Shown here: positions 4,408 to 55,929 of the stretch, piece after piece
How positions within the stretch are numbered: the stretch's first letter is position 1
Layout: every line of letters begins with the position of its first letter
NCBI GenBank assembly: GCA_046349955.1
Contig: JAXMBI010000004.1
Coordinates: forward strand, 28,237 to 92,236
DNA length: 64,000 nucleotides
Source of the DNA: Pirellulales bacterium
GTDB taxonomy: Bacteria > Planctomycetota > Planctomycetia > Pirellulales > JBGAPH01
Direction of reading: 5' to 3'
The notes under the pieces: generated by a model
Database searches by the model: none
Seen by the model: the letters and a program-made list of their open reading frames with translations, nothing else
What the model was told of the DNA's origin: nothing
Made by a program: the position numbers and the translations under genes

Positions 4408-4836
4408 ATGATCACACGCCACCCACTGCCGGTCCGTCTGACTGCCCTGGTGGCAGCCGTGGCGTTGGCGCTGGGCTCGTGGTCCCCGCTGGCGGCCTGT
4501 GGGTGCGCTCCTTGCGGGGCGGCGCTCGAGGGCTGCAGTTCGGGGTGCTGCTCGGCCAAGTCCCTCTGCCAGAGCTGTTGTGACCGCCAGGGCGAAGACG
4601 AATCGCCCGCAGATTGCCTGGCCGACGGTGGCTGCCTGTGTCACCCAGTGAGCGCTCCGACTTCGGAGCAACCGCGGGTTCCGCAGTCCGACCAAGTGGC
4701 GCAGGCCTTCGTGGTCCTGCCCAGCGCGATCAGCGCGCTGCCGAGCCTAATCGAGCCGACGGCGGTTGTCGCGGCTCCCCCTCTCTCGCGTTCGGGCGCG
4801 GAACTCCGCGTCCTCTACTGCTCGCGTCTGGAATGA
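4408..4836 (+). CDS. Exported (possibly lipoprotein) Cys-rich protein, 142 aa
   Basis: The internal ATG at 4408 gives MITRHPLPVRLTALVAAVALALGSWSPLAAC, a signal peptide with an L-A-A-C lipobox-like motif. Twelve Cys lie within the next 48 residues (CGCAPCG..GCSSGCC..SLCQSCC..DC..GGCLC), and one more lies near the C-terminus. The upstream part of the listed ORF (4201-4407) looks non-coding. Confidence 0.55.
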   Translation: MITRHPLPVRLTALVAAVALALGSWSPLAACGCAPCGAALEGCSSGCCSAKSLCQSCCDRQGEDESPADCLADGGCLCHPVSAPTSEQPRVPQSDQVAQAFVVLPSAISALPSLIEPTAVVAAPPLSRSGAELRVLYCSRLE

Positions 4837-5176: not shown

Positions 5177-5349
5177 TTGCATTGATGCCCCCGGGCGGCG
5201 TCCGGCTTGCGCCGGCCTTGCCCGGGGCTATTCTCGGGTCGCCCCTGCCGGGGCTGCATGCCGCGCCTCACGCTTCGCAGATGCCAAAGCGCAACTTCAA
5301 AACTGGCGCTGCGGACTAATATGGCACAACCCGAAAAACAGTCAGAGCA

Positions 5350-6909
5350 CTAAAAGGCCTGGTAGAAGACTTCGCACAGGCGGCCCAGCGTTTTGCCGGC
5401 CTTCTCCGTGCCGCTCGCGTCGGGCATGTGGACCAGGTTCACGAACATCGCGATCGCCACTTCGCGGCCGCTATGACATGTGCCGTAGCCGGCCAGGGCC
5501 TTGCTCGTAAGCAGGCTCGTGCCGTTCAGGGCGTTGTTCCAGAGGAGCGTGCCTGTTTTGGCCTGAAACTTTCCATAGGCCAGGCTGTCCTTCGGCGCCA
5601 CGCCGGCCAGAGTGCCGTCTTGGCCAAGGATGGGCATTGCATCGCGATAGACTTGGAAGTCGGGGCGTTCGGCCATCGCTCGCAGCAGTTGCACGGCCGC
5701 TCGCGGGGTGATGAAGTCGGCCCGGTCGCCGCCGGCGCCGCCGCCAAAGGAGATCGTTGCGGTGTCGACGCCCAGGCCCTCGAGAATCGCCTGTTGGCGG
5801 CGCAGACCCTGGCCCAGCGTCCGTTCGCCGTGTTTGGCCGCCAACAGCAGCGGCAGCGTGCTGGCGTGCAGGTTGTGGCTGACCTTGAGGATCAGTTTGG
5901 CTTCTTCCGAGAACGGCGGCGATTCGAGTTCAGCCACCTTGGTGAGCTTGCCGTAGCCGTCGGCGGGCGGCAGCTTGCCGGTCGAGTTGGGCGCGAGGGC
6001 CGAAGCGGTCATTTCCACCCCGGAGCGGCGCAGGGCCTCGATCAGCAGCGTGCGGGCGAAGGAGGCCGCGTCGCCGACCTCGTGGATCGTCACGAAGGGG
6101 CGGTGTCCCAAGGGAATTTGGCCGCGGACGGTGATCCGCTCCCCCTCCGAGGAGACGTCGATCGCCACCTTCTCGCCCGCCTTCACGGTGTCGACGCGGG
6201 CGTCGACTTGCACGAACTCGGTTTGCGGGCGCCAGCGCACTCGAGCCGGCGTGCCAATCGTGGTGGGGGTGATCTCGAAGTCGATCAGGTTGTCGTTCAC
6301 GATGATGGGCGTGAGTCGACCGGGGCCGCTGCCGGTGCCGGCCGCTTTGTCGAACAAGCGGTCGTCGATGATCACGTCTCCCTCGATCCGCTTGATCTCG
6401 ACCTCGGTGACCTGGCGGGCCAACTCCTCGAGTCCGGCCAGTGGGTCGGGCTCGGTGAGTTCGGCCTTGGCCGAGAAGCCTGCGTAGATGTGGTCGGTGT
6501 TGGCGAAGGCCACGTGCCCCTGCGGATCGGTGCGGCCGCCGAACGTCAGGTCGCCCGAGGCGACCAGGATCAGGTCCCCCTTGAGCACGCCGTTTTCGAT
6601 CGGCCCGCGGGCATACACCGGGGTGCGGAAGCGGTGGTTGGCGCCGAAGGCCTCGAGCGCCGCGGCGGTCGAGAAGAGCTTGGTCGTCGAGGCGGGGGCG
6701 AACAGCTTGTCGGGGTTGTGGGCGAACAACACCTCGCCCGTCTTGCGGTCGACGACCAGCAGGCCCCAATGGGCGTGCTTGTATTCGGGGGCATCGATGA
6801 TCTGGCTGACCTCGCCCGCCAAATCGGCCGCCTGCGCGGCGTGCGTCGGCGCGCTGGCCAGGGCCGCGAGGACCAGGCTGGGCACGAGAAACCGAACACG
6901 ACGTCGCAT
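5350..6909 (-). CDS. dacB: D-alanyl-D-alanine carboxypeptidase/endopeptidase, PBP4 family (peptidase S13)
   Basis: It has SxxK (ASTTK), SxN (SHN) and KTG (KTGT) in the right order and spacing. The ATG at 6909 gives a signal peptide, MRRRVRFLVPSLVLAALASAPTHAAQA. The longer listed ORF start (7083) adds a non-signal extension. Confidence 0.85.
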   Translation of the reverse strand: MRRRVRFLVPSLVLAALASAPTHAAQAADLAGEVSQIIDAPEYKHAHWGLLVVDRKTGEVLFAHNPDKLFAPASTTKLFSTAAALEAFGANHRFRTPVYARGPIENGVLKGDLILVASGDLTFGGRTDPQGHVAFANTDHIYAGFSAKAELTEPDPLAGLEELARQVTEVEIKRIEGDVIIDDRLFDKAAGTGSGPGRLTPIIVNDNLIDFEITPTTIGTPARVRWRPQTEFVQVDARVDTVKAGEKVAIDVSSEGERITVRGQIPLGHRPFVTIHEVGDAASFARTLLIEALRRSGVEMTASALAPNSTGKLPPADGYGKLTKVAELESPPFSEEAKLILKVSHNLHASTLPLLLAAKHGERTLGQGLRRQQAILEGLGVDTATISFGGGAGGDRADFITPRAAVQLLRAMAERPDFQVYRDAMPILGQDGTLAGVAPKDSLAYGKFQAKTGTLLWNNALNGTSLLTSKALAGYGTCHSGREVAIAMFVNLVHMPDASGTEKAGKTLGRLCEVFYQAF

Positions 6910-7140
6910 GGCTCTTCTCACGGGGGCGTAGGACCAAGGGGCAGGCCAGCGGTGAGGCGGGACTGCTATTATGTTTGCCGCCGGCGAGAGCCACCAGGGC
7001 CGGGCTGCGCGAAGAAACGCCCAAAGGTTCGTGGCAAGAACAGCCCTGCCTGGCGGGCTATCCGCCCGGCAGGGGCCTGCCATAATAGAGCAGGCCCGGG
7101 TGAATAACCTCCGGGCCTGCTCGATGACAAGGGCGCGCTG

Positions 7141-8556
7141 ATGATGCCGAAAAATTTAACAGCCCAGTCGCCTCGCTGGCAAGCCCGCGCTTGCGTCTCT
7201 CTGCGCGGCGCTGGCCCCCTGTTCGTCGGGGCGGTCGGGTTGCTGCTCATGCTCTCGCTGGGCGCAGCTCCAGTGCGAGCCGGCGATCCGGTCAAGCCCT
7301 GGGTCGAAGCCCAGCTTCCGCGGCTGCTCGAGTTCTACAAAGAACTCCACCAGGCGCCGGAGCTCTCGCTGCGTGAAGAGCAAACTGCCCAGCGCGTCGC
7401 CGCACAGTGGCGAGACGCCGGGTTTCAAGTCACCGAGCACGTGGGCGGCCACGGCATCGTGGGCCTGCTCCAGAACGGCGACGGTAAAACGCTGATGCTC
7501 CGTTGCGATCTCGACGCCCTGCCCGTGAGCGAGCAGACGGGCCTCAAGTACGCCTCGACGGCGACGACCACGGGCGAGGATGGTTCTACGACCGGCGTCA
7601 TGCACGCCTGCGGCCACGACGTTCACATGACCTGCTCGGTCGGCGTGGCGGCGTTTCTGGCCGCGCACAAAGACCTATGGCGCGGCACGGTGATGCTGGT
7701 CGGCCAGCCGGCCGAGGAGCGGGGCATGGGCGCCCGCGCGATGCTCAATGACGGCCTGTTCGACCGCTTTCCCAAGCCAGACTACGCAGTCGCTCTGCAC
7801 TGCGACTCGACGATTCCCTCGGGGCAGATCGGCTACCGCCCAGGATACGCGCTGGCCAATGTCGACAGCGTCGACATCACGGTCCGCGGCCGCGGCGGGC
7901 ACGGCGCCTATCCGCACACCACGATCGACCCGGTCGTGCAGGCAGCTCACCTGATTCTCGACCTGCAGACGATCGTCAGCCGCGAGGTGAAGCCCACCGA
8001 GCCTTCGGTGATCACGGTCGGCTCGATCCATGCTGGCACGAAGCACAATGTGATTGCCGACCAGTGCAAATTGCAGCTCACGGTGCGCAGCTATTCCGAC
8101 GACGTCCGCGCGCAGCTCAAGGCGGCCATCGTCCGCAAGGCCAAGGCCGCCGCAGCCGCCTTCGCTGCTCCCGAGCCGACGATCGAATTCACCGACGGCA
8201 CGCCGGCCATGTTCAACGACCGCCAGCTCGCGGAACACGTGGCCGAGGTCTTTTGCAAGCGGTTTGGGCACGAGCAGATCGTGCTGACCGACCCGTCGAT
8301 GGGAGGCGAGGACTTCAGCGAATACGGCCGCCGCGGCGTGTCGAGCTTCATGTATTGGCTCGGCACGATCGACGCCCACCGTCTGGCCGGCTACACGCGC
8401 GTCGGTCAGGCGCCTCCCTCCTTGCACTCGCCTCTCTTCTACCCCGACCCCGAGCCAACCCTGAAAACGGGCGTCGAGTCGTTGGCCGCGGCCGCGCTCG
8501 ACCTGTTGGCGGTCGAGAAGGAAGACAAGACTGATAAGCGCAAGGCAGCGCCGTGA
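7141..8556 (+). CDS. M20D-family amidohydrolase (N-acyl-amino acid amidohydrolase/hippuricase-like), exported
   Basis: It carries the HACGHDVH metal-binding motif, the GQPAEE motif and a dimerisation-domain layout typical of M20D, plus an N-terminal hydrophobic signal. Confidence 0.85.
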   Translation: MMPKNLTAQSPRWQARACVSLRGAGPLFVGAVGLLLMLSLGAAPVRAGDPVKPWVEAQLPRLLEFYKELHQAPELSLREEQTAQRVAAQWRDAGFQVTEHVGGHGIVGLLQNGDGKTLMLRCDLDALPVSEQTGLKYASTATTTGEDGSTTGVMHACGHDVHMTCSVGVAAFLAAHKDLWRGTVMLVGQPAEERGMGARAMLNDGLFDRFPKPDYAVALHCDSTIPSGQIGYRPGYALANVDSVDITVRGRGGHGAYPHTTIDPVVQAAHLILDLQTIVSREVKPTEPSVITVGSIHAGTKHNVIADQCKLQLTVRSYSDDVRAQLKAAIVRKAKAAAAAFAAPEPTIEFTDGTPAMFNDRQLAEHVAEVFCKRFGHEQIVLTDPSMGGEDFSEYGRRGVSSFMYWLGTIDAHRLAGYTRVGQAPPSLHSPLFYPDPEPTLKTGVESLAAAALDLLAVEKEDKTDKRKAAP

Positions 8557-9434: not shown

Positions 9435-9839
9435 TTACTCAGCCGCCTGATCGGCCAAGACTTCCTCGAGCGGCACTTGGCCGACCTTTTGATAGCCCAG
9501 GCCTCGCAGGACTTCCAGCAGCTCGCTGCAGGTGGGGAACATCCGGCCGCTCTTCCGTTTGTATTGGTCGAGGGCCTGCATGAACTCGACCTCTTCGTTC
9601 GTGTAGTCGCGCTCGCAGGTGGTGGGATCGATCTGCCGGCGGCGATTCACTTTGGCGCGGCGCTCGAGCGGCCGGCGCTCGACCGTGGGGCTGGGCGCGG
9701 CCGACGCACTGGCGGCCCGCTTCTCGTTCGTCCGTCGCTCGGTGCGGCGACGATCCACGGTGACGATCGATTCTCCAGCAGACGCCTTCGATTGACGGGC
9801 CTTGACCATGCCTGCGAATTCCCCCGAGGAAGGATGCAC
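9435..9839 (-). CDS. Hypothetical protein with an Arg-rich disordered N-terminus and a conserved-looking C-terminal helical domain
   Basis: The C-terminus is [45 protein letters not shown]. The ORF has a coding-like codon pattern. An alternative start lies at 9809 (MVKARQ). Confidence 0.5.
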
Positions 9840-10028
9840 GTGCTAAGCTGGGAAGTTTAGCTCGACTGTTGCATTAAGGAATCGGCAGTAAGTCCCTTCC
9901 TCTTGCGAAGCTGGCGAAACAAGCGAGGGTTTGCCGGCTGGATCGATTGTGCCGGCGCGGGGAGGGCCCGGGCAGGACATAGAAGGCCGCCGCCAGGGGG
10001 CTTCGTCCCGCCTCGATTCCCAAGGGTT

Positions 10029-11181: not shown

Positions 11182-14145
11182 CTAGTTGACCTGGCCCAGA
11201 TAGGCCAGCAGATCGGCCATGGCTTGCGGGTCGATTTGCTGCTCGAGCCCTTCCGGCATCAGCGAGCGCCCCTGGCTGGTCATCGACTCGACGTCGCGGC
11301 GGGCGACCGTGTCCTCGAGCCCCTCGGCGCGGCGCAGCACGATGCTGGCGCTCGATTCCGAGGCGATCATCCCCGTCAGCACGCGGCCATCGGCGGTCGT
11401 GAGCGTGTACGACACATACTGCGGGTTCACCTCGCGGTTGGGCTCGAGCACTGCCAGCAAGATCGCCTCGGGGCCACGGGCCTTGATGGCCGCCAGCGGC
11501 GGTCCGATCTCGTGCCCTACCCCTTCGAGCTTGTGGCAGGTAGCGCACTGGGCGCGAAACACGGCGCGGCCGCGATCGACATTTCCGCTCAGTTCGAGGG
11601 CCGCCCGGTAGCGGGTGGTCAGCGTCGCCCGCGCGCTCTCTTCGGCGGCGGCGAAACGGGCCACCGCCTGGCGAACGTTTTCCTCCGGGTGGGCTCGCAG
11701 TTGTTGCCGCTGCGCCGTGGAGAGTTCGTTCCAGGGGAAGCGTTCGCCGGCCAGTGCCTCGGCCAACGGCGCGGTCAGCGCAGGGTACGAAAGAACCACA
11801 TCGACGAGCGGCGCTCGTGCCGCGGGCTCCAGCTTCAACAGCGCGGCAAAAGCCTCTCCCGCATCCGTACGCGCCAATGCCGCGAGCGCGTCGCGTTGCA
11901 GTTGGAGCGGCTCCTCGGCCGCCAACAAGGGCAACAATGCGGCCGGCTCTGCGCCCTTCAGCCTTACCATCAGCGCGAGCGCCTCCTGCCGCTGAGCGTC
12001 GCGTTGCTGGCGATCTGTCAGAATCGCGGTGGCCCGCGCCGCTTGCTGGGCGATGAGCCGTTCGGCGTCAGGGCCCAGGTCCTTCCATCGCACTTTCCAG
12101 TCGCCGCCACTGCGAGCCAGTCCGTCGGTTACCCCTTTGAGCACGGCCGCCGCGATCTCCGGCATTGCTTTTTGGCAGGCGGACACGAGCGCGGTGAGCT
12201 CGTCGCGTCGTCCCTGTCCACCGACTTGGCGGGCCAGCGATTCGAGCAGCGTGGGCGCAGCCGATTCGGCGCAATAGGCCTCATCCTCGAGTAGCGTTGT
12301 CAGCAGCTTGGCCGCGGAATCGGCGACCGAGCTCTGCACCGCGAATCGCATGAGCGGCTCGGCCCCATCGCGCCGCGCCAGCGCCGCCAAGGCCGGAGTG
12401 CGGAGGTCGGCCGGCAAGCCCGCCAGGCGAAATGCCAGCTCGAGCCGCACGCGCGGATCGGGATCGTTCATCAGCTCCTGTGCGAGAGCCGACAGGCGCG
12501 CTGAGGCGGCGAAGCGCTGTTCCGCCAACCGCACGGCGTGCTCCCGCACGCGGGGATGAGCGTCGACGAGCGCGCTTGCCAGATCGTCGTCGGCCAGCGC
12601 GCTCCGCCCGGCGAGCAACCATAGAGCTTGTAAGCGACGTTGGGCCAAGCCGCTGCCGGAGAGCGCCTTGCGCAGCCCATGTTCGGCCGCTGGGTCGGCG
12701 CGCTCGCGGAGCAGCCGGGCAGCCGTTTCCCGCTGCCAGGAGCGCGGGCTGTCGAGCGCGGCCACAAGTTCGGACGTCGTCGCCCGCTCCAGCGGGCGCA
12801 CCGGTTCTCGGCGGAAGTTCTCCGGCACGACCCGGTAGATCCGGCCCCGGTCGTTGCCGCTGTTCAGGTCGAGTTGCTGCTTGATCGGGCCGGGTAAACT
12901 CGCGGGATGCTCCACCACCTCGCGGTACATGTCGGCTACATAGAGCGACCCATCGGGGGCGTTGGCGAACTGCACCGGGCGGAACCAAGTGTCGTCCGAG
13001 GCGATGAACTCGGCGCCTTCGTCGACCCGCTCGGCCCGAAGTTCGAGGCCGTGCTCCACCAGACGCTTGCGATGGACGAGGTTGCTGCCAACGTCGGCCA
13101 CCACGGCCCAGCCGCGCATTTCGGCGGGCCAGGCATCGCCGCGGTAGATCGTCACTCCGGTGGCGCTCGTGAAGTAGCCCGAGGCCCGGCCTCCCCCTTC
13201 GACGGGCCCCTCGACCTTGCCGGCCACGCGCAGCCGCGTGCGCAGGATCCGCCACGGCTCGACAGGACTCGCGCGAAACACTTCGGCCTGCGGGCCGTCG
13301 GCGGCGATGCTGACGGTTGGCTGCGGCGCCGGGGCCCAGGGATTCCGCGTGTGCAAATCGTCGTCGACGAGCACCTGGCGAATGTGATCGCTATTGGAAC
13401 AAACGAAGCGCCGACCCCAGTCGTCGAACGAAAGGCCGTGCTGCCCGCCGCCGGTCACGGCCGCGAGTTCGAGCGTTCGCGGATCGAAAGCGAAGTCGCG
13501 GCCCCGTAGGTCGACCGCCTCGCTCTCGGGCTGCTCCGGCCGCCGCACGTGCCCGCCCGAGGCGCTCGTGGCCCCGTAAATCCGGCCATCCAGTCCCCAG
13601 GCGAACGAGTTGAGCAGCCCCTGCACGTTGCTGCGGCCAAAGCCGGTGAGAACTACCCGGCGCTGGTCGGCCCGTCCGTCGCCGTCGTCGTCCCTAGCGA
13701 ACAGGATGTCGGGCGCCGCCCCGACAAACACTCCCCCGTTTGCGCAAATCACAGCAGTTGGCCACGATAGGCCCTCGAGGTAGACCGCGCTGCGGTCGTA
13801 GCGGCCGTCGCCATCGGTGTCTTCCAACCGCCGCACCCTGCCGAGGCGGTCTTGGTCGCGCTCCGAGTAGTCGCACATCTCGACGACGTACAGGCGGCCG
13901 GCTTCGTCGAAACTCATGGCCACCGGATCGGCCAGCAGCGGCTCGGCCGCGGCGAGTTCCAAGCGAAAGCCCGGGGCAACGTGAAACGACTCGAGCGCCT
14001 CTTCGGGCGGGCGCGGGGCGACGCGGGGGAGTTCGGGAGCCGCAAGCTCGTCGGCAGGCTCCGCCGCGGCGAGCAGCGCCGGCATCGAGAGCAGTGCGAG
14101 CAGAGCCGCGGCCCACCGGCAGCGATCGGTCATGAGGGAAATCAC
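11182..14145 (-). CDS. PVC-type heme-binding CxxCH protein (membrane-bound dehydrogenase-like beta-propeller, HEAT repeats and a C-terminal cytochrome c domain)
   Basis: It has a signal peptide and an N-terminal propeller-like region with DGDGR/DDGDGRAD loops. Long HEAT-like helical repeats follow (DPRVRLELAF..., HPRVREHAV...). The C-terminal CATCHKLEGVGHEIGPPL is a cytochrome c motif. Confidence 0.85.
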   Translation of the reverse strand: MISLMTDRCRWAAALLALLSMPALLAAAEPADELAAPELPRVAPRPPEEALESFHVAPGFRLELAAAEPLLADPVAMSFDEAGRLYVVEMCDYSERDQDRLGRVRRLEDTDGDGRYDRSAVYLEGLSWPTAVICANGGVFVGAAPDILFARDDDGDGRADQRRVVLTGFGRSNVQGLLNSFAWGLDGRIYGATSASGGHVRRPEQPESEAVDLRGRDFAFDPRTLELAAVTGGGQHGLSFDDWGRRFVCSNSDHIRQVLVDDDLHTRNPWAPAPQPTVSIAADGPQAEVFRASPVEPWRILRTRLRVAGKVEGPVEGGGRASGYFTSATGVTIYRGDAWPAEMRGWAVVADVGSNLVHRKRLVEHGLELRAERVDEGAEFIASDDTWFRPVQFANAPDGSLYVADMYREVVEHPASLPGPIKQQLDLNSGNDRGRIYRVVPENFRREPVRPLERATTSELVAALDSPRSWQRETAARLLRERADPAAEHGLRKALSGSGLAQRRLQALWLLAGRSALADDDLASALVDAHPRVREHAVRLAEQRFAASARLSALAQELMNDPDPRVRLELAFRLAGLPADLRTPALAALARRDGAEPLMRFAVQSSVADSAAKLLTTLLEDEAYCAESAAPTLLESLARQVGGQGRRDELTALVSACQKAMPEIAAAVLKGVTDGLARSGGDWKVRWKDLGPDAERLIAQQAARATAILTDRQQRDAQRQEALALMVRLKGAEPAALLPLLAAEEPLQLQRDALAALARTDAGEAFAALLKLEPAARAPLVDVVLSYPALTAPLAEALAGERFPWNELSTAQRQQLRAHPEENVRQAVARFAAAEESARATLTTRYRAALELSGNVDRGRAVFRAQCATCHKLEGVGHEIGPPLAAIKARGPEAILLAVLEPNREVNPQYVSYTLTTADGRVLTGMIASESSASIVLRRAEGLEDTVARRDVESMTSQGRSLMPEGLEQQIDPQAMADLLAYLGQVN

Positions 14146-50949: not shown

Positions 50950-51149
50950 ACTGGCTGCTACACTTACCCGGAGCGCCAGCAAGGAAGAAGTGCGCCAGTT
51001 GGGCGCGCTGGCCGAAGATGCCGCCCGGTCCCGTGAAAGGGTCAGCCGGGCTCGGCAACGGACGTGTAGCTCCCCTTGCTGGCGCCGCGGGCTAGTATCG
51101 AATTCTCCTCGCAATTCCTCCGTCTTCCTCCTGGTTAGAAAGCCGACCC

Positions 51150-52346
51150 ATGGCCGCCTCCCTGCCGCTCGATGAGCAGACCGCAATCGATCACCTGCTG
51201 CGCTTTCTCAACGTGGAGGGCGTGAGCGGCGAGGAGCGGGCGATCGCCGAGGCGGTGTCCGACGAGCTGCAGAAGTTCGGCGTTCCCAAGTCGGCGATTC
51301 GCTACGACAAGGTCAACGAGCGAATCCCCCTGCCCACACAGACCGGCAACCTCTTCGTCGATCTGCCGGGGACGAAGCCGGGGCCGCGGCTCGTGTTCTC
51401 GACGCACCTCGACACCGTGCCGCTCTGCGCCGGCGCGAAGCCGCGCCGCGAAGGGGACCGCATTCTCTCGGACGGAACCACGGCCCTCGGCGGCGACAAT
51501 CGCACCGGCTGTGCCGTGCTCGTCTCGTTGGCCGAAACGCTACTCAAACACAAGCTGCCGCACCCGCCGATTACGCTGCTGTTCACTGTGCGCGAAGAGA
51601 GCGGCCTGCAGGGCGCCCGCTACATCGACCCCGCCGACCTGAAGGGCACGGCGATGGGCTTCAACGTCGACGGCAAGTTGCCGGCCGACCTGATCCTGGG
51701 CGCCGTGGGGCAGGAGAGCTTCACGATCGAGATCCGCGGCAAGGCGGCACACGCCGGCGTCGCCCCCGAGAAGGGCATTTCCGCGACGCTCGCCGCCGCA
51801 CTCGCCCTCGAAGAGGTGCATCGGGGCGGCTGGTTCGGCAAGATCGTCAAGGGGGAGAGCCGCGGCACGAGCAACATCGGCGTCTTCGGCGGCAAACCTG
51901 GCAAGCCGGCGGGGGACGCCACGAACGTCGTCACCGACTACGCGTTCCTCAAGGGGGAGGCGCGCAGCTCCGATGCGGCGTTCGCCTCGCAGATCACGGC
52001 GGCCTACCGCGCGGCCTTCGAGAAGGGCGCCGCCGCCGTCAAGGACATCGGCGGCGAGTCGGCCAAATTGAAGTTCGAGGCCCACGTCTCCTACCCGCCG
52101 TTCAAGCTGGCCGAGAGCGACGCGGTGATCGCCCACGCCAAGCGGGCGGCCGAGTCGATCGGCCTTACGCCGACGTGCCACTTCTCGAACGGCGGCCTCG
52201 ACGCCAACTGGCTGGTGGAACACGGCCTGCCGACCGTGACGATCGGCGCCGGGCAGTACGAGATCCACACGGTGAACGAGTACGTGGTGCTGCCGGAATT
52301 CCTGCAAGGCTGCCGACTGGCGGTGGCGCTGGCGACCGTAGTTTAG
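51150..52346 (+). CDS. M20-family metallopeptidase, peptidase T-like
   Basis: FSTHLDTVP, GGDNRTGCAVL and TVREESGLQGA match the metal ligand contexts of M20B/PepT-like enzymes. Confidence 0.75.
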   Translation: MAASLPLDEQTAIDHLLRFLNVEGVSGEERAIAEAVSDELQKFGVPKSAIRYDKVNERIPLPTQTGNLFVDLPGTKPGPRLVFSTHLDTVPLCAGAKPRREGDRILSDGTTALGGDNRTGCAVLVSLAETLLKHKLPHPPITLLFTVREESGLQGARYIDPADLKGTAMGFNVDGKLPADLILGAVGQESFTIEIRGKAAHAGVAPEKGISATLAAALALEEVHRGGWFGKIVKGESRGTSNIGVFGGKPGKPAGDATNVVTDYAFLKGEARSSDAAFASQITAAYRAAFEKGAAAVKDIGGESAKLKFEAHVSYPPFKLAESDAVIAHAKRAAESIGLTPTCHFSNGGLDANWLVEHGLPTVTIGAGQYEIHTVNEYVVLPEFLQGCRLAVALATVV

Positions 52347-52347
52347 T

Positions 52348-52540
52348 TGCTCGCTACGCCCAACGATGCCAGCCACCACAACGGCGAGCGGCCGGCGTGA
52401 GCCGGCTGACCAAACCGGCGTCCACGCCCTCACGCGCAGAATCGGCCAGCTTACGCTGGGCCGCTCGCCCATTGCGGTGCTCGCTACGCCCAACGATGCC
52501 AGCCACCACAACGGCGAGCGGCCGGCGTGAGCCGGCTGAC
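52348..52540 (+). repeat. Tandem ~130-bp structured repeat: one full unit (52348-52477) plus the first 63 nt of a second (52478-52540)
   Basis: The 63 nt at 52478-52540 are identical to 52348-52410. The unit contains the inverted repeats GGCGAGCGGCC (52383-52393) / GGCCGCTCGCC (52459-52469) and the hairpin GCCGGC-GTGA-GCCGGC (52391-52406). Confidence 0.9.
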
Positions 52541-52556
52541 AAAGGCGGTGTTCCCC

Positions 52557-52892
52557 ATGGCCAACCAGCACGTTAAGGCCGCCACCAAGACAATCGTCGA
52601 ACTCTTGGTTCTTGGAGACTATGAGCAGGTCGAACGTTTGACCGAGGGAAGGCGCATGGATAGGCAAGCCATCTATGGAGCGATTCGCGACTATGGTCGG
52701 ACGCTCGTTCCCGTTCCGGACCAAGCGTACGACTCACTCGACATTGTGCCGATCAAGTCCGCGCGATCCGCGTGGTCCGTGCGGCTTCATCTCTGGACAG
52801 CGGAAGAGGGTGAGTCAGATCTGTCCGTGGAACTGACGATCCTCGAGGGAGACGGCCTAACTGTCGAACTCGACGATATCCACGTGCTCTGA
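52557..52892 (+). CDS. Hypothetical 111-aa cytoplasmic protein encoded on a lower-GC insert (possibly immunity-protein-like)
   Basis: The ATG at 52557 opens the frame; the listed GTG at 52527 lies inside the repeat. The product is MANQHVKAATKTIVELLVLGDYEQVERL...WSVRLHLWTAEEGESDLSVELTILEGDGLTVELDDIHVL. By hand count it has 193 G+C in 336 nt (57%), compared with 78/120 (65%) in the last 120 nt I counted of the upstream gene. Confidence 0.55.
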   Translation: MANQHVKAATKTIVELLVLGDYEQVERLTEGRRMDRQAIYGAIRDYGRTLVPVPDQAYDSLDIVPIKSARSAWSVRLHLWTAEEGESDLSVELTILEGDGLTVELDDIHVL

Positions 52893-52935
52893 ACCGCTTG
52901 CTGCAGAGCACAGCCCGACTCGCGCATCCCTCCTT

Positions 52936-53189
52936 CGGCGAGCGGCCGGCGTCAGCCGGCTGACCAAAACCCGCGTCCGCGCCCTCACGCGCAGAGTCGG
53001 CCAGCTTACGCTGGGCCGCTCGCCCCCTTGCGTGCTCGCCACGCCCAACGTTGCCAGCCACCACAACGGCGAGCGGCCGGCGTTAGCCGGCTGACCAAAC
53101 CCGCGTCCGCGCCCTCACGCGCAGAATCGGCCAGCTTACGCTGGGCCGCTCGCCCCCCGGCGTTGCTCGCCACTCCCGACGTTGCCAGC
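52936..53189 (+). repeat. Continuation of the ~130-bp repeat array: the 3' 97 nt of a unit (52936-53032), a full unit (53033-53163) and a 26-nt partial unit (53164-53189)
   Basis: These align directly to the 52348-52477 unit with a few substitutions. The hairpin loop reads GTCA in the first of these copies and GTTA in the second. Confidence 0.9.
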
Positions 53190-53205
53190 TGAGTGCTTGC
53201 CAGCT

Positions 53206-54282
53206 CTACAGCGCCGCCACCACCAAATCCCCCACCTCGCGCGTCCCGTAACCCATCTTGCCGGCCGACTGGCTCTTCATCTTCGTGCCGGTCACGACCT
53301 CGATCGCCTTCATGATGCGGGCGGCGGCCTTGGGCTGGCCCGAGTGCTCGAGCAGCATAGCGGCCGCGCCGATCGCCGCGATCGGGTTGATCACGTTCTG
53401 GCCGGTGTACTTGGGGGCGCTCCCTCCCATCGGCTCGAACATGCTCACGCCGCCGGGATCGGGGTTGATGTTCCCACCGGAGGCCACGCCCAGGCCGCCC
53501 TGCAGCATGGCGGCCAGGTCGGTGATGATGTCGCCGAACATGTTCGTGGTCACGATCACGTCGAAGTATTCCGGCGTCTTCACCATCCACATGCAGCAGG
53601 CGTCGACGTGTTGGTAGTCGGCCTTCACGTCGGGGAATTCCTTGGCCACCTCTTGGAACGTGCGCCACCACAGGTCGTGGCCATAGGTCAGCACGTTCGT
53701 TTTGGCCACGAGCGTCAGCATCTTCTTGGGGCTGTTCCGCTTCCGCGTGAAGTCGAAGGCCCAGCGAATGCAGCGCTCGCAGCCCTTGCGAGTGAAAATG
53801 GCCGTTTGCGTGGCGACTTCGTCTTGGGTGTGCTTCTTGAGAAAGCCGCCGACGCCGCAGTACAGGTCTTCCGTGTTCTCGCGGACCACCACGAAGTCGA
53901 TGTCGGCCGGCTTCTTGTCCGCCAGCGGCGTTTCCACCCCCGCGAAGAGCTTCACTGGCCGCAGGTTGATGTATTGGTCGAGCTGGAACCGCAGCTCGAG
54001 CAGCAGCCCCTTCTCGAGCACGCCAGGCGGCACCTGCGGGTGGCCGACCGCGCCCAGGTAAATGGCGTCGAACTTACGCAGTTCGTCGACCGCGCCGGCC
54101 GGCAGCGTTTCGCCCGTCTTCAGGTAGCGTTCGCCGCCGAAGTCGAACTCGGTGAGCTCGTAGCGGAAGTTCTCGAGCGCCGACACGGCCTTGAGCACCT
54201 TGAGCCCTTCGGCGGTGACTTCGGGACCCGTGCCATCGCCTGGGAGAACGGCAATCTTGATCGGAGCGGCGCTGGCGGCCAT
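53206..54282 (-). CDS. Isocitrate/isopropylmalate dehydrogenase family enzyme (3-isopropylmalate dehydrogenase or tartrate/D-malate dehydrogenase-like)
   Basis: The ATG at 54282 gives MAASAAPIKIAVLPGDGTGPEV. The motifs DQYINLRPVK, VVVRENTEDLY and NMFGDIITDLAA are present. At 358 aa it is LeuB-sized, but the sequence also resembles the TtuC subgroup. Confidence 0.85.
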   Translation of the reverse strand: MAASAAPIKIAVLPGDGTGPEVTAEGLKVLKAVSALENFRYELTEFDFGGERYLKTGETLPAGAVDELRKFDAIYLGAVGHPQVPPGVLEKGLLLELRFQLDQYINLRPVKLFAGVETPLADKKPADIDFVVVRENTEDLYCGVGGFLKKHTQDEVATQTAIFTRKGCERCIRWAFDFTRKRNSPKKMLTLVAKTNVLTYGHDLWWRTFQEVAKEFPDVKADYQHVDACCMWMVKTPEYFDVIVTTNMFGDIITDLAAMLQGGLGVASGGNINPDPGGVSMFEPMGGSAPKYTGQNVINPIAAIGAAAMLLEHSGQPKAAARIMKAIEVVTGTKMKSQSAGKMGYGTREVGDLVVAAL

Positions 54283-54446
54283 CGGCAATCGGTCTCGTAC
54301 GGGGAGGGGTTGGGGAAAGAGCCGATTGTAGCCCGCTGCCGGAGGGAGCGGAATGCCCGGTCCGCCGGCTCCCCGCTCGCGAGCAGTTCGAGGCCTTTTA
54401 CCAGGTCGGCAAAGTCCTCGGGTCCTGGCAGCCCCGACTGCGAAAG

Positions 54447-54704
54447 TCAGCGCAGCGCCCGCAGAAAGAGGAGCGTGCAGACGCCGCCCAGCAGCACCAA
54501 GAAGATTGCCCACAGGCGGAGCAGCACGCTTTGCCGCTGCAGGAGGCGAGCGTAGGTCTCCCGCGACTGGCGCTCCGCTTCTCGCGCAAACTCCAGATGC
54601 GCCTGAGCGAACTCAGCGCTCTCGCGAGTCCGCTGATCGTAGAGCGCGAGCAGCCTTTGCAGCGTATCGTGAATGTCGGAGAGCAGTTTGTTCGGGTCGT
54701 CCAT
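54447..54704 (-). CDS. Hypothetical 85-aa protein with a C-terminal TM anchor
   Basis: The internal ATG at 54704 gives MDDPNKLLSDIHDTLQRLLALYDQRTRESAEF...LRLWAIFLVLLGGVCTLLFLRALR. Confidence 0.4.
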   Translation of the reverse strand: MDDPNKLLSDIHDTLQRLLALYDQRTRESAEFAQAHLEFAREAERQSRETYARLLQRQSVLLRLWAIFLVLLGGVCTLLFLRALR

Positions 54705-54793
54705 GTTCGGCCACCGCGGAGTTTCGCACGCCTGTGAAGTTTCTGACGGATACGTCGTCGAGGCACGCAAGACCTCAGGAAACCAACCTGCCC

Positions 54794-55786: not shown

Positions 55787-55804
55787 GGTGCGAACAGCGG
55801 TAAT

Positions 55805-55897
55805 GGCGAGCGGCCCGGCGTAAGCCGGCCGAGGGAACGGCGACGACTAAAGCACAGCGATGGCGATTCATCAGCCGGCTTACGCCGGCCGCTCGCC
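55805..55897. repeat. Palindromic intergenic element of the GGCGAGCGGCC(C)GGCG family
   Basis: GGCGAGCGGCCCGGCGTAAGCCGGC (from 55805) and GCCGGCTTACGCCGGCCGCTCGCC (to 55897) are reverse complements apart from one indel. They are separated by about 44 nt. The layout matches 11075-11152. Confidence 0.8.
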
Positions 55898-55929
55898 CCT
55901 GCGGTGGCTGGCCAGATCAGCGGCCCCGG

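Follow-up and report, generated by a model that had tools for sequence, protein, structure and literature searches.

The window analysed here is a 64,000-nucleotide stretch from a Pirellulales planctomycete (contig JAXMBI010000004.1, positions 28,237 to 92,236 of the forward strand). Within it, the 3' intergenic region between two convergent housekeeping genes, an M20-peptidase gene and a leuB-like gene, holds a tandem array of palindromic repeats, and one repeat unit of this array is split by an insert that carries a single small gene. The array begins 2 nt after the M20 stop codon, and the genes around the insert code for AbgT, the M20 peptidase, LeuB and an Obg-like GTPase. The features of the locus are collected in Table 1.

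Table 1. Features of the split repeat array, the gene inside it and the related module pairs elsewhere in the window (L001, L190, L191 and L193 are relatives introduced in the text).
Feature	Position	Strand	Basis and remarks
M20/M28-family peptidase gene, tripeptide aminopeptidase-like	51150-52346	+	Pfam Peptidase_M20, M20_dimer, Peptidase_M28, Peptidase_M42; orthologues in L001, L190, L191, L193
Repeat unit U1	52349-52478	+	5' extension, forward module 52383-52409, 33-nt loop, inverted variant module 52442-52469, 3' extension
Truncated unit U2-left	52479-52540	+	5' extension and forward module 52513-52539, without inverted partner
16-nt spacer from module to start codon, AAAGGCGGTGTTCCCC	52541-52556	+	alignment with unit loop; kept in L001
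DUF7668 (PF24705) gene, 111 aa, intact	52557-52892	+	Pfam E = 1.5e-23
8-bp perfect stem-loop GTGCTCTG-N12-CAGAGCAC across the stop codon of the DUF7668 gene	52884-52911	+	sequence, shuffles
Unique 3' flank of the DUF7668 gene, 43 nt, outside the repeat	52893-52935	+	no match in other loci; missing in L001
Right part of the split unit	52936-53033	+	forward module 52937-52963, loop, inverted module 52997-53024, 3' extension
Full unit U3 (53034-53163) and 26-nt partial unit U4 (53164-53189)	53034-53189	+	
Convergent 3-isopropylmalate/isocitrate dehydrogenase-family gene, leuB-like	53206-54360	-	Pfam Iso_dh E = 7e-93; 98.7% aa identity to L001
Solitary inverted module pair, REPIN-like, between co-directional genes	55805-55898	-	5' and 3' extensions as in array units
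Second solitary inverted module pair, directly 3' of a stop codon	11085-11153	-	fold -59.6 kcal/mol, z = -6.5

Two direct copies of the 29-mer CGGCGAGCGGCCGGCGTGAGCCGGCTGAC enclose the insert (52512-52540 and 52936-52964). They are identical at 28 of 29 positions, the sole mismatch being a loop base (G versus C). Between them lie 395 nt, after which the array continues with the remainder of the unit. Joining 52479-52540 to 52965-53033 restores a unit of 131 nt that is identical to U1 at 125 of 130 positions and to U3 at 124 of 130, and the left part on its own matches the start of U1 at 62 of 62 positions. The insert splits the unit in phase. The 29-mer has six matches in the window, where 100 shuffles predict none. 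An earlier note on this stretch had described the coordinates, the near-perfect duplication and the restored unit, and all of these were reproduced when the sequence was rechecked. It had also taken the duplicated 29-mer for the arm of a GCCGGC hairpin; the junction does lie at this hairpin, but the 29-mer is more than an arm. It is one complete self-folding repeat module, which is also found alone elsewhere. Past the left copy, a weak likeness to the unit loop (about 9-11 of 16 positions) runs for some 16 nt up to the ATG, and the left breakpoint may for that reason lie near 52556 and not at 52540. When the insert is taken together with one module, as a segment of 424 nt, both of its junctions fall directly after GCCGGCTGA(C).

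The 27-nt module is built from a GGCGAGCG tail, a GCCGGC stem, a GTNA loop, the second GCCGGC stem and a TGA end. One forward module, a 33-nt loop, one inverted variant module with the stem CCAGC/GCTGG and short 5' and 3' extensions make up a unit, so that in the array forward and inverted modules alternate with fixed spacers at a period of about 130 nt. Units are told apart by point substitutions that follow a consistent pattern. They fold strongly: U1 reaches -65.4 kcal/mol and the right part of the split unit -57.4 kcal/mol (both z = -4.3), and the sense-strand z-scores of units and solitary pairs range from -4.3 to -6.5. The window has three module loci, all intergenic, with six forward modules and their inverted partners; the two solitary pairs stand just 3' of stop codons. 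No Rfam family was found in the whole window at gathering thresholds and the array gave just sub-threshold miRNA-like noise, which rules out a known RNA family as its identity. Internal repeats of ~327 nt and ~87 nt elsewhere in the window (24868-25640; 16843-16996 and 21932-22085) lie in large coding regions and represent repeated protein domains unrelated to the array.

The exact 27-mer GGCGAGCGGCCGGCGTNAGCCGGCTGA, present for example at window positions 52383-52409, occurs in at least 120 metagenome contigs (L067-L186; further examples are L032 4005-4089 and L058 17051-17114). Its carriers include metagenome-assembled genomes (MAGs) labelled Pirellulales (L001), Gemmataceae (L032) and Planctomycetaceae (L058), and the GC content of the loci that carry it spans 52-75%; the alphaproteobacterial loci that were fetched have no copy. 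Among the matches listed there are 133 non-redundant module copies, 71 of which have the same module inverted 5-31 nt away. A further 40 are paired in inverted orientation with a module that shares the CGCTCGCC tail but not the inner stem, and the remaining 22 (17%) are singlets. A perfect stem of at least 5 bp with a 4-nt loop is found in 201 GGCGAGC contexts. The inner stems covary (GCCGGC, GGGGGC, GGGGAC, GTGGGC and others), each having its perfect complement, the GTNA loop and the TGA tail.

The repeat is thus an array of the kind formed by repetitive extragenic palindromes (REP), their inverted doublets (REPIN) and bacterial interspersed mosaic elements (BIME) (Gilson; Higgins; Bertels & Rainey, PMC3116915; Ton-Hoang 2012; Di Nocera 2013, PMC3733652). 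It shares with these a short self-folding palindrome, often placed directly after stop codons, that forms inverted doublets next to decayed singlets; its copies appear to be numerous, dispersed and mostly extragenic. The clusters of modules in alternating orientation with fixed spacers and tandem amplification are those of BIME-2. Gain and loss between close relatives are fast, and occasional copies lie in frame within genes, as in Opitutus and Rickettsia. In L149, two such copies (4780-4806 and 5245-5271) fall in frame within a 1296-aa isoleucyl-tRNA-synthetase-like ORF (peptides ASGRCKPAD...GADAPRSP and ASGRREPAD) and resemble the palindromic-element insertions of those two genera. Other traits are unlike classical REPs. 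Neither the GTAG nor the CGTC tag is present at the feet of the module, where GGCGAGC(G) is found 5' and (C)TGA 3', and pairs whose inner stems differ imply a structure in which a stem closes off two hairpins. No description of the planctomycete motif was found in the searchable literature. To our knowledge it is a REP-like family undescribed there to date, with an unusual tail and an unusually broad conservation across Planctomycetia. Classical REP families are specific to a species or genus, whereas the planctomycete 27-mer is nearly exact across several orders of Planctomycetia; so broad a distribution points to a trans-acting partner, or a function, that has been conserved.

The 1.9 Mb of related loci that were collected contain few direct repeats of 24 nt or more at a spacing of 250-2500 nt. 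Split-plus-duplication cases number two among the ~125 REP loci listed, the window and an unrelated marine contig, L100 (1681-2603; L179 is the same sequence reversed). There the 3' end of surE with a forward module is followed by a 756-nt insert, a direct duplicate of ~77-80 nt that ends at the module, and the rest of the inverted pair. The insert holds a single gene for an S-adenosylmethionine-dependent methyltransferase (Methyltransf_11; 1802-2503) just 3' of the module, and the junction has the same position relative to the module as in the window. The earlier note had proposed a search for other genes within split units, and L100 is the one independent contig with this architecture. Because its duplication extends ~25 nt into locus-specific coding sequence, L100 fits recombination through homology better than a hairpin-directed cut. 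A downstream gene start is not enriched at singlet modules (7/19 versus 24/100), and on these counts we rejected the idea that singlets are general marks of gene-insertion junctions.

The gene in the insert matches DUF7668 over positions 1-100 of the 100-position Pfam model with 83.5 bits, against a cut-off of 27. Aligned with 27 homologues, it keeps 7 of 7 invariant and 8 of 8 near-invariant columns. Public gene calls for the window protein and its L001 orthologue (P0032 and P0001) begin at the internal Met34 and give 78 aa, leaving out window 52557-52655; the family alignment covers this upstream part, and the 111-aa form starting from the ATG at 52557 is therefore the full-length one. The GC content of the open reading frame (ORF) is 57.4% (193/336) and that of the last 120 nt of the upstream gene 65% (78/120), exactly as counted by hand in the earlier note. 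GC at third codon positions is 0.67, compared with 0.85-0.91 (around 0.9) in four neighbouring genes. As this value is well below that of its neighbours, the gene is probably compositionally foreign and horizontally acquired. The low-GC single ORF that had been proposed thus holds up as an intact, conserved gene of a named family. No promoter or intrinsic-terminator consensus was found in the array and ORF region, a sigma-70-like promoter included, in line with the earlier description of the gene as promoterless.

The product is predicted to have an NTF2-like α+β fold. The AlphaFold2 model (predicted local distance difference test 95.9) consists of four helices on a four-stranded curved sheet, and Foldseek returned NTF2-like domains alone, among them the N-terminal domain of PBP2a/PBP5 and SnoaL/ketosteroid-isomerase-like proteins (E from 1.6e-3, TM ~0.5). 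The profile and structure searches recommended by the earlier note thus gave both a family and a fold. Compared with the orthologue in L001, the ratio of non-synonymous to synonymous substitution rates is 0.23 (13 synonymous and 10 non-synonymous changes) versus ~0.03 for the neighbouring genes; the ORF is constrained, but weakly. One nucleotide is inserted close to the N-terminus of the L001 orthologue, through sequencing error or as the onset of decay. A stem such as the one across the stop codon arose in 143 of 20,000 shuffles (0.7%) of the 66-nt segment, and the homologue in L062 likewise has an inverted repeat right after its stop. The stem-loop probably belongs to the gene's own 3' flank.

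The DUF7668 family comprises about 1,666 representative clusters. Most members stand alone, at 110-118 aa, and some are present as tandem or fused copies. Elsewhere the homologues belong to arrays of small genes on the same strand. One follows the gene for a 2220-aa RHS protein and has DUF8255 and Imm53 as neighbours (L188), one adjoins a YD-shell protein (L062), and one stands beside a weak SUKH/SMI1_KNR4 match, a faint Imm33 match and a giant PATR protein (L060). From these neighbourhoods we read the ORF as a putative orphan immunity-type protein of polymorphic toxin systems. The guess of an immunity-type protein in the earlier note fits such contexts of Rhs/YD proteins, Imm53 and SUKH-like arrays. 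With orphan immunity genes of the Rhs/YD and contact-dependent inhibition systems it has in common a length of ~110 aa, a cytoplasmic-type product, the NTF2-like fold and the atypical GC. In contrast to typical polymorphic-toxin immunity genes, which its homologues resemble in their small-gene arrays downstream of RHS/YD genes and beside Imm53 and SUKH-like genes and in their tandem and fused copies, the window copy stands by itself between housekeeping genes and has no toxin in its vicinity. Searches of PADLOC, NCBIfam and PDB sequences with the ORF gave nothing useful, no paper naming DUF7668 was found in the literature searched, and no experimental or curated link of the family to immunity exists. 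None of the homologues elsewhere has a REP module nearby, and the similarity of the window locus to them stops at the stop codon.

Two other DUF7668 loci hold direct repeats of their own. In L187 (5950-9100) the topoisomerase VI B and A genes are separated by an insertion that contains the homologue (P0009); the first 84 nt of top6A are present here in three direct copies (6381, 7570 and 9017), each heading an insert. One of these inserts has a Y1_Tnp gene (6575-7030, with a Y---Q--HH motif) between inverted hairpin repeats of 40 nt that belong to a different family. In L065 a 30-nt direct repeat (5976-6005 and 7120-7149) brackets two small genes beside an rve_3 transposase.

Syntenic relatives were sought by scanning genome contigs with the M20 protein. 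The sole syntenic one is the Pirellulales MAG L001, which shares 21 kb with the window at 91-96% nucleotide identity. Its left junction is as in the window, with one inverted pair, an extension plus forward module, the 16-nt spacer, the ATG and the ORF (truncated junction at 11354-11400). Window 52893-53197 is missing from L001; these 305 nt correspond to the 43-nt flank and the whole right-hand array, so that in L001 the ORF stop lies 10 nt from the leuB stop. The breakpoints of the difference share CTGA. Since L001 has the ORF and the left junction without the right-hand repeats, the 29-nt duplication is not a conserved cassette boundary, and the simplest account is one deletion in L001, because the missing block contains the 3' stem-loop that belongs to the gene itself. 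We dropped the notion that the left cluster of L001 is orthologous to the right cluster of the window, which would imply that the gene moved; the units differ by 5-6 each, which does not discriminate. The independent assembly of L001 also bears on whether repeat-read mis-joining produced the array or the placement of the ORF. The contig is apparently of MAG origin and tandem 130-nt repeats are hard to assemble, but L001 has the same left junction and ORF at the locus with normal divergence, the unique 43-nt flank links the ORF to the right-hand array, and the units differ by patterned substitutions. An assembly artefact is thus very improbable.

Hairpin repeats turn over on the time scale that separates the window from L001. 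The spacer that in the window holds the solitary pair at 55.8 kb has a different hairpin-repeat family in L001, and an additional element of ~170 nt, with inverted termini ACTAGTGCTGCGTCAC..., lies 5' of the L001 M20 gene (9780-9950 region). That second hairpin-repeat family, CCCTTGCTTGCGCTGCGGGCTAGT, is found at window 51068-51095 and at L001 9757-9780, 9889-9912 and 14695-14830; in L001 it takes the place of the window's GGCGAGCGG pair (55788-55929). L001 is also ~340 nt longer than the window in the stretch from the leuB-upstream region to the Obg-like GTPase gene (13248-13668, versus window 54704-54786).

In all other relatives homology to the window ends at the M20 stop (52337-52346 and orthologous positions). 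Those whose M20 homologues have 88-98% aa identity (L190, L191, L193 and L194) keep the upstream synteny of AbgT and M20 and lose it exactly there. Downstream of M20, L190 and L191 (88-89% aa identity) have an unrelated gene of 159/196 aa with no known function followed by IF-2B, and L193 and L194 have a third hairpin family followed by a gene of the major facilitator superfamily (MFS). Four lineages therefore differ at this point, having DUF7668 and leuB, the 159/196-aa gene and IF-2B, or the MFS gene. The third hairpin family, CACRGGCTGGAAGCCYGTGCCAC (HGLEARAT in one frame), occupies the spacer 3' of M20 in L193 (5520-5620) and is also found at L187 8472-8523. On these comparisons, the slot 3' of the M20 gene is a recombination and synteny breakpoint at a repeat-rich spacer. 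The earlier note had suggested looking for an empty site, that is, an intact unit without the ORF; none was found among the relatives carrying M20, as L001 carries the ORF and the others lose synteny at the M20 stop.

As the 29-mer is a dispersed REP-type module that is often a singlet, two direct copies need not stem from an insertion. The DUF7668 gene could have entered a repeat-free spacer, with REP/REPIN elements later reaching the upstream spacer, where they end in a singlet, and the downstream spacer separately; the 29-nt duplication and the in-phase split would then be coincidences of modular repeats. The frequency of singlets and the combination of ORF and left repeats without right repeats in L001 agree with this, and they also tell against the cassette-like capture proposed in the earlier note. 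It fits further that the REP content of spacers changes within the divergence of the window and L001 (55.8-kb spacer; L001 9780-9950), and that the first REP of the L001 cluster and the 11-kb window copy both begin at the module boundary without a 5' extension. However, separate colonisation requires at least two REP gains plus the loss in L001 of the 43-nt flank with the stem-loop, compared with one deletion if a unit was split. The left copy moreover keeps its full 5' extension and, as far as the start codon, ~16 nt that resemble the loop; once the insert is taken out, the unit matches U1 at 125 of 130 positions, and L100 has the same architecture with a duplication that reaches into unique flanking sequence. 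We consider separate colonisation possible but rather unlikely.

The fixed position of the junctions raises the alternative that a Y1/HUH enzyme is at work, either a REP-associated tyrosine transposase (RAYT) or a planctomycete class 3 TnpA_Y1. Such an enzyme would cut single-stranded DNA just 3' of the hairpin, after CTGA. The segment between two direct modules would be excised as a circle with one REP and be re-inserted 3' of another REP, giving the order module, gene, module and remainder of the target unit. Both junctions of the 424-nt segment and that of L100 lie at this place, and CTGA is also found at the breakpoints of the 305-nt difference in L001. Class 3 TnpA_Y1 genes of Planctomycetes and Acidobacteria are reported with flanking atypical hairpins that have a CnGA foot and hundreds of genomic copies (PMC6006769), and the DUF7668 homologue of L187 adjoins a hairpin-flanked Y1_Tnp gene. 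The locus is reminiscent of IS200/IS605 elements, RAYTs and class 3 TnpA_Y1 (PMC6006769) in the direct hairpins that bound a segment and in junctions at a fixed hairpin distance beside a conserved tetranucleotide; IS200/IS605 chemistry does not need a classical target-site duplication.

Against such an enzyme, no integrase or Y1 transposase is found near the insert, which encodes DUF7668 only, and no Y1 transposase in the window or near any module copy. The direct hairpins that bound the 424-nt segment have no counterpart within the insert, whose left end is without an internal hairpin. Neither a motif scan nor tblastn searches with two Y1 queries detected a cognate RAYT in the window or in the related loci (1.9 Mb). 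One of the queries, an approximate E. coli RayT sequence, gave one weak match (L033, E = 0.012) unlinked to any REP locus. The other, the Y1_Tnp of L187, matched in L141 alone, in a gene not flanked by the REP module. A regular-expression search for HUH/Y motifs over the window and the fetched loci gave nothing. The Y1_Tnp genes that were seen (L187 and L141) are flanked by hairpins other than the planctomycete module, and no Y1 association of the module itself was observed. The recombinase tied to the repeat that the earlier note had envisaged did not turn up in the window or in these loci. A hairpin-directed cut also leaves unexplained why the L100 duplication runs ~25 nt into coding sequence, and there are just two cases among the ~125 REP loci, with no enrichment of downstream gene starts at singlets. 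The CTGA seen here stands 3' of the hairpin and the reported CnGA foot 5' of it. CTGA also contains a TGA stop codon, so that a chance match is possible. We hold this route to be improbable. The wider idea, in which the phylum-wide module would be an HUH (Y1) recognition hairpin and REP arrays would serve as landing pads for promoterless single-gene cassettes by an integron-like logic, with the window ORF and the L100 methyltransferase as captured examples, appears doubtful in the same way.

The comparison with integron cassettes goes back to the earlier note and does not hold up in detail. Like a cassette, the insert has a promoterless single ORF of foreign composition with very short flanks beside an imperfect palindrome that folds as single-stranded DNA. 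Unlike one, it is not accompanied in its neighbourhood by intI, attI, a Pc promoter, a cassette array or an R''/L''/L'/R' organisation; only one ORF is present. The palindrome appears to be a dispersed genome-wide repeat and is not specific to a cassette, and the homologous genes elsewhere have no such site and are never REP-flanked. GTTRRRY does not occur on the plus strand of 52300-53250, and the minus-strand matches lie within the 5' extensions and the ORF, away from 52540/52541 and 52935/52936. An integron attC site is ruled out by the lack of an R'/R'' organisation at the junctions together with the absence of an integrase nearby. Likewise, neither the 395-nt insert nor the 305-nt right-hand block has terminal inverted repeats, and in the absence of these and of a transposase a miniature inverted-repeat transposable element or insertion sequence was rejected.

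IS1397 and ISKpn1 insert into REP loops, and REP-mediated tandem duplications occur in Salmonella. The locus is similar to such REP/BIME targets in that foreign DNA lies within a REP cluster and meets it at the hairpin, and in the change of array copy number and the deletion between relatives. It differs in that the insert is a single cargo gene without transposase or terminal inverted repeats, and in that a whole REP module is duplicated instead of a short target site. Repeat-mediated recombination explains the 29-base duplication better than a new gene-cassette system does. We therefore favour, with modest confidence, the explanation that a foreign immunity-type gene was recombined into a REP/BIME-like array at a REP module, followed by erosion or growth of the array.

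The ORF is probably foreign and must then have been inserted. In the favoured explanation a 395-nt fragment of foreign composition, comprising the DUF7668 gene and its own 3' stem-loop, would have recombined into the pre-existing array before the split from L001. The route would be homologous or homology-facilitated illegitimate recombination, with the REP acting as a short portable homology and without any dedicated cassette machinery. The donor fragment may already have held a REP copy, as the module occurs across the phylum. Afterwards, either a deletion between CTGA microhomologies would have removed the 305 nt on the right-hand side of the ORF from L001, or this block would have been added in the window. 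Read-through from the M20 gene is the probable source of ORF transcripts, consistent with the lack of promoter and terminator consensus sequences. By analogy with the REP/BIME elements of E. coli, the hairpins may protect mRNA 3' ends, cause partial termination between the convergent genes and act as a recombination hotspot.

Several observations weigh against this explanation. The 29-mer copies flank the ORF in phase, and simple recombination needs either a REP-bearing donor or duplication of the module during repair. The 305-nt difference is readable as loss in L001 or as gain in the window, and with no empty site among the relatives carrying M20 the insertion is inferred. The module has neither a classical tag nor a cognate RAYT in the loci covered. 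Finally, the immunity role is drawn from neighbourhoods only, and the window copy has no adjacent toxin.

The benefit of REP/RAYT systems to their host is still debated. If REP-bounded cassettes were moved by a Y1/HUH enzyme, a gene-capture mechanism would be added to REP/RAYT biology. If recombination at the repeats is correct, the locus would be a clear example of REP-type arrays as recombination-prone sites where acquired genes settle, in this case an orphan immunity-type gene.

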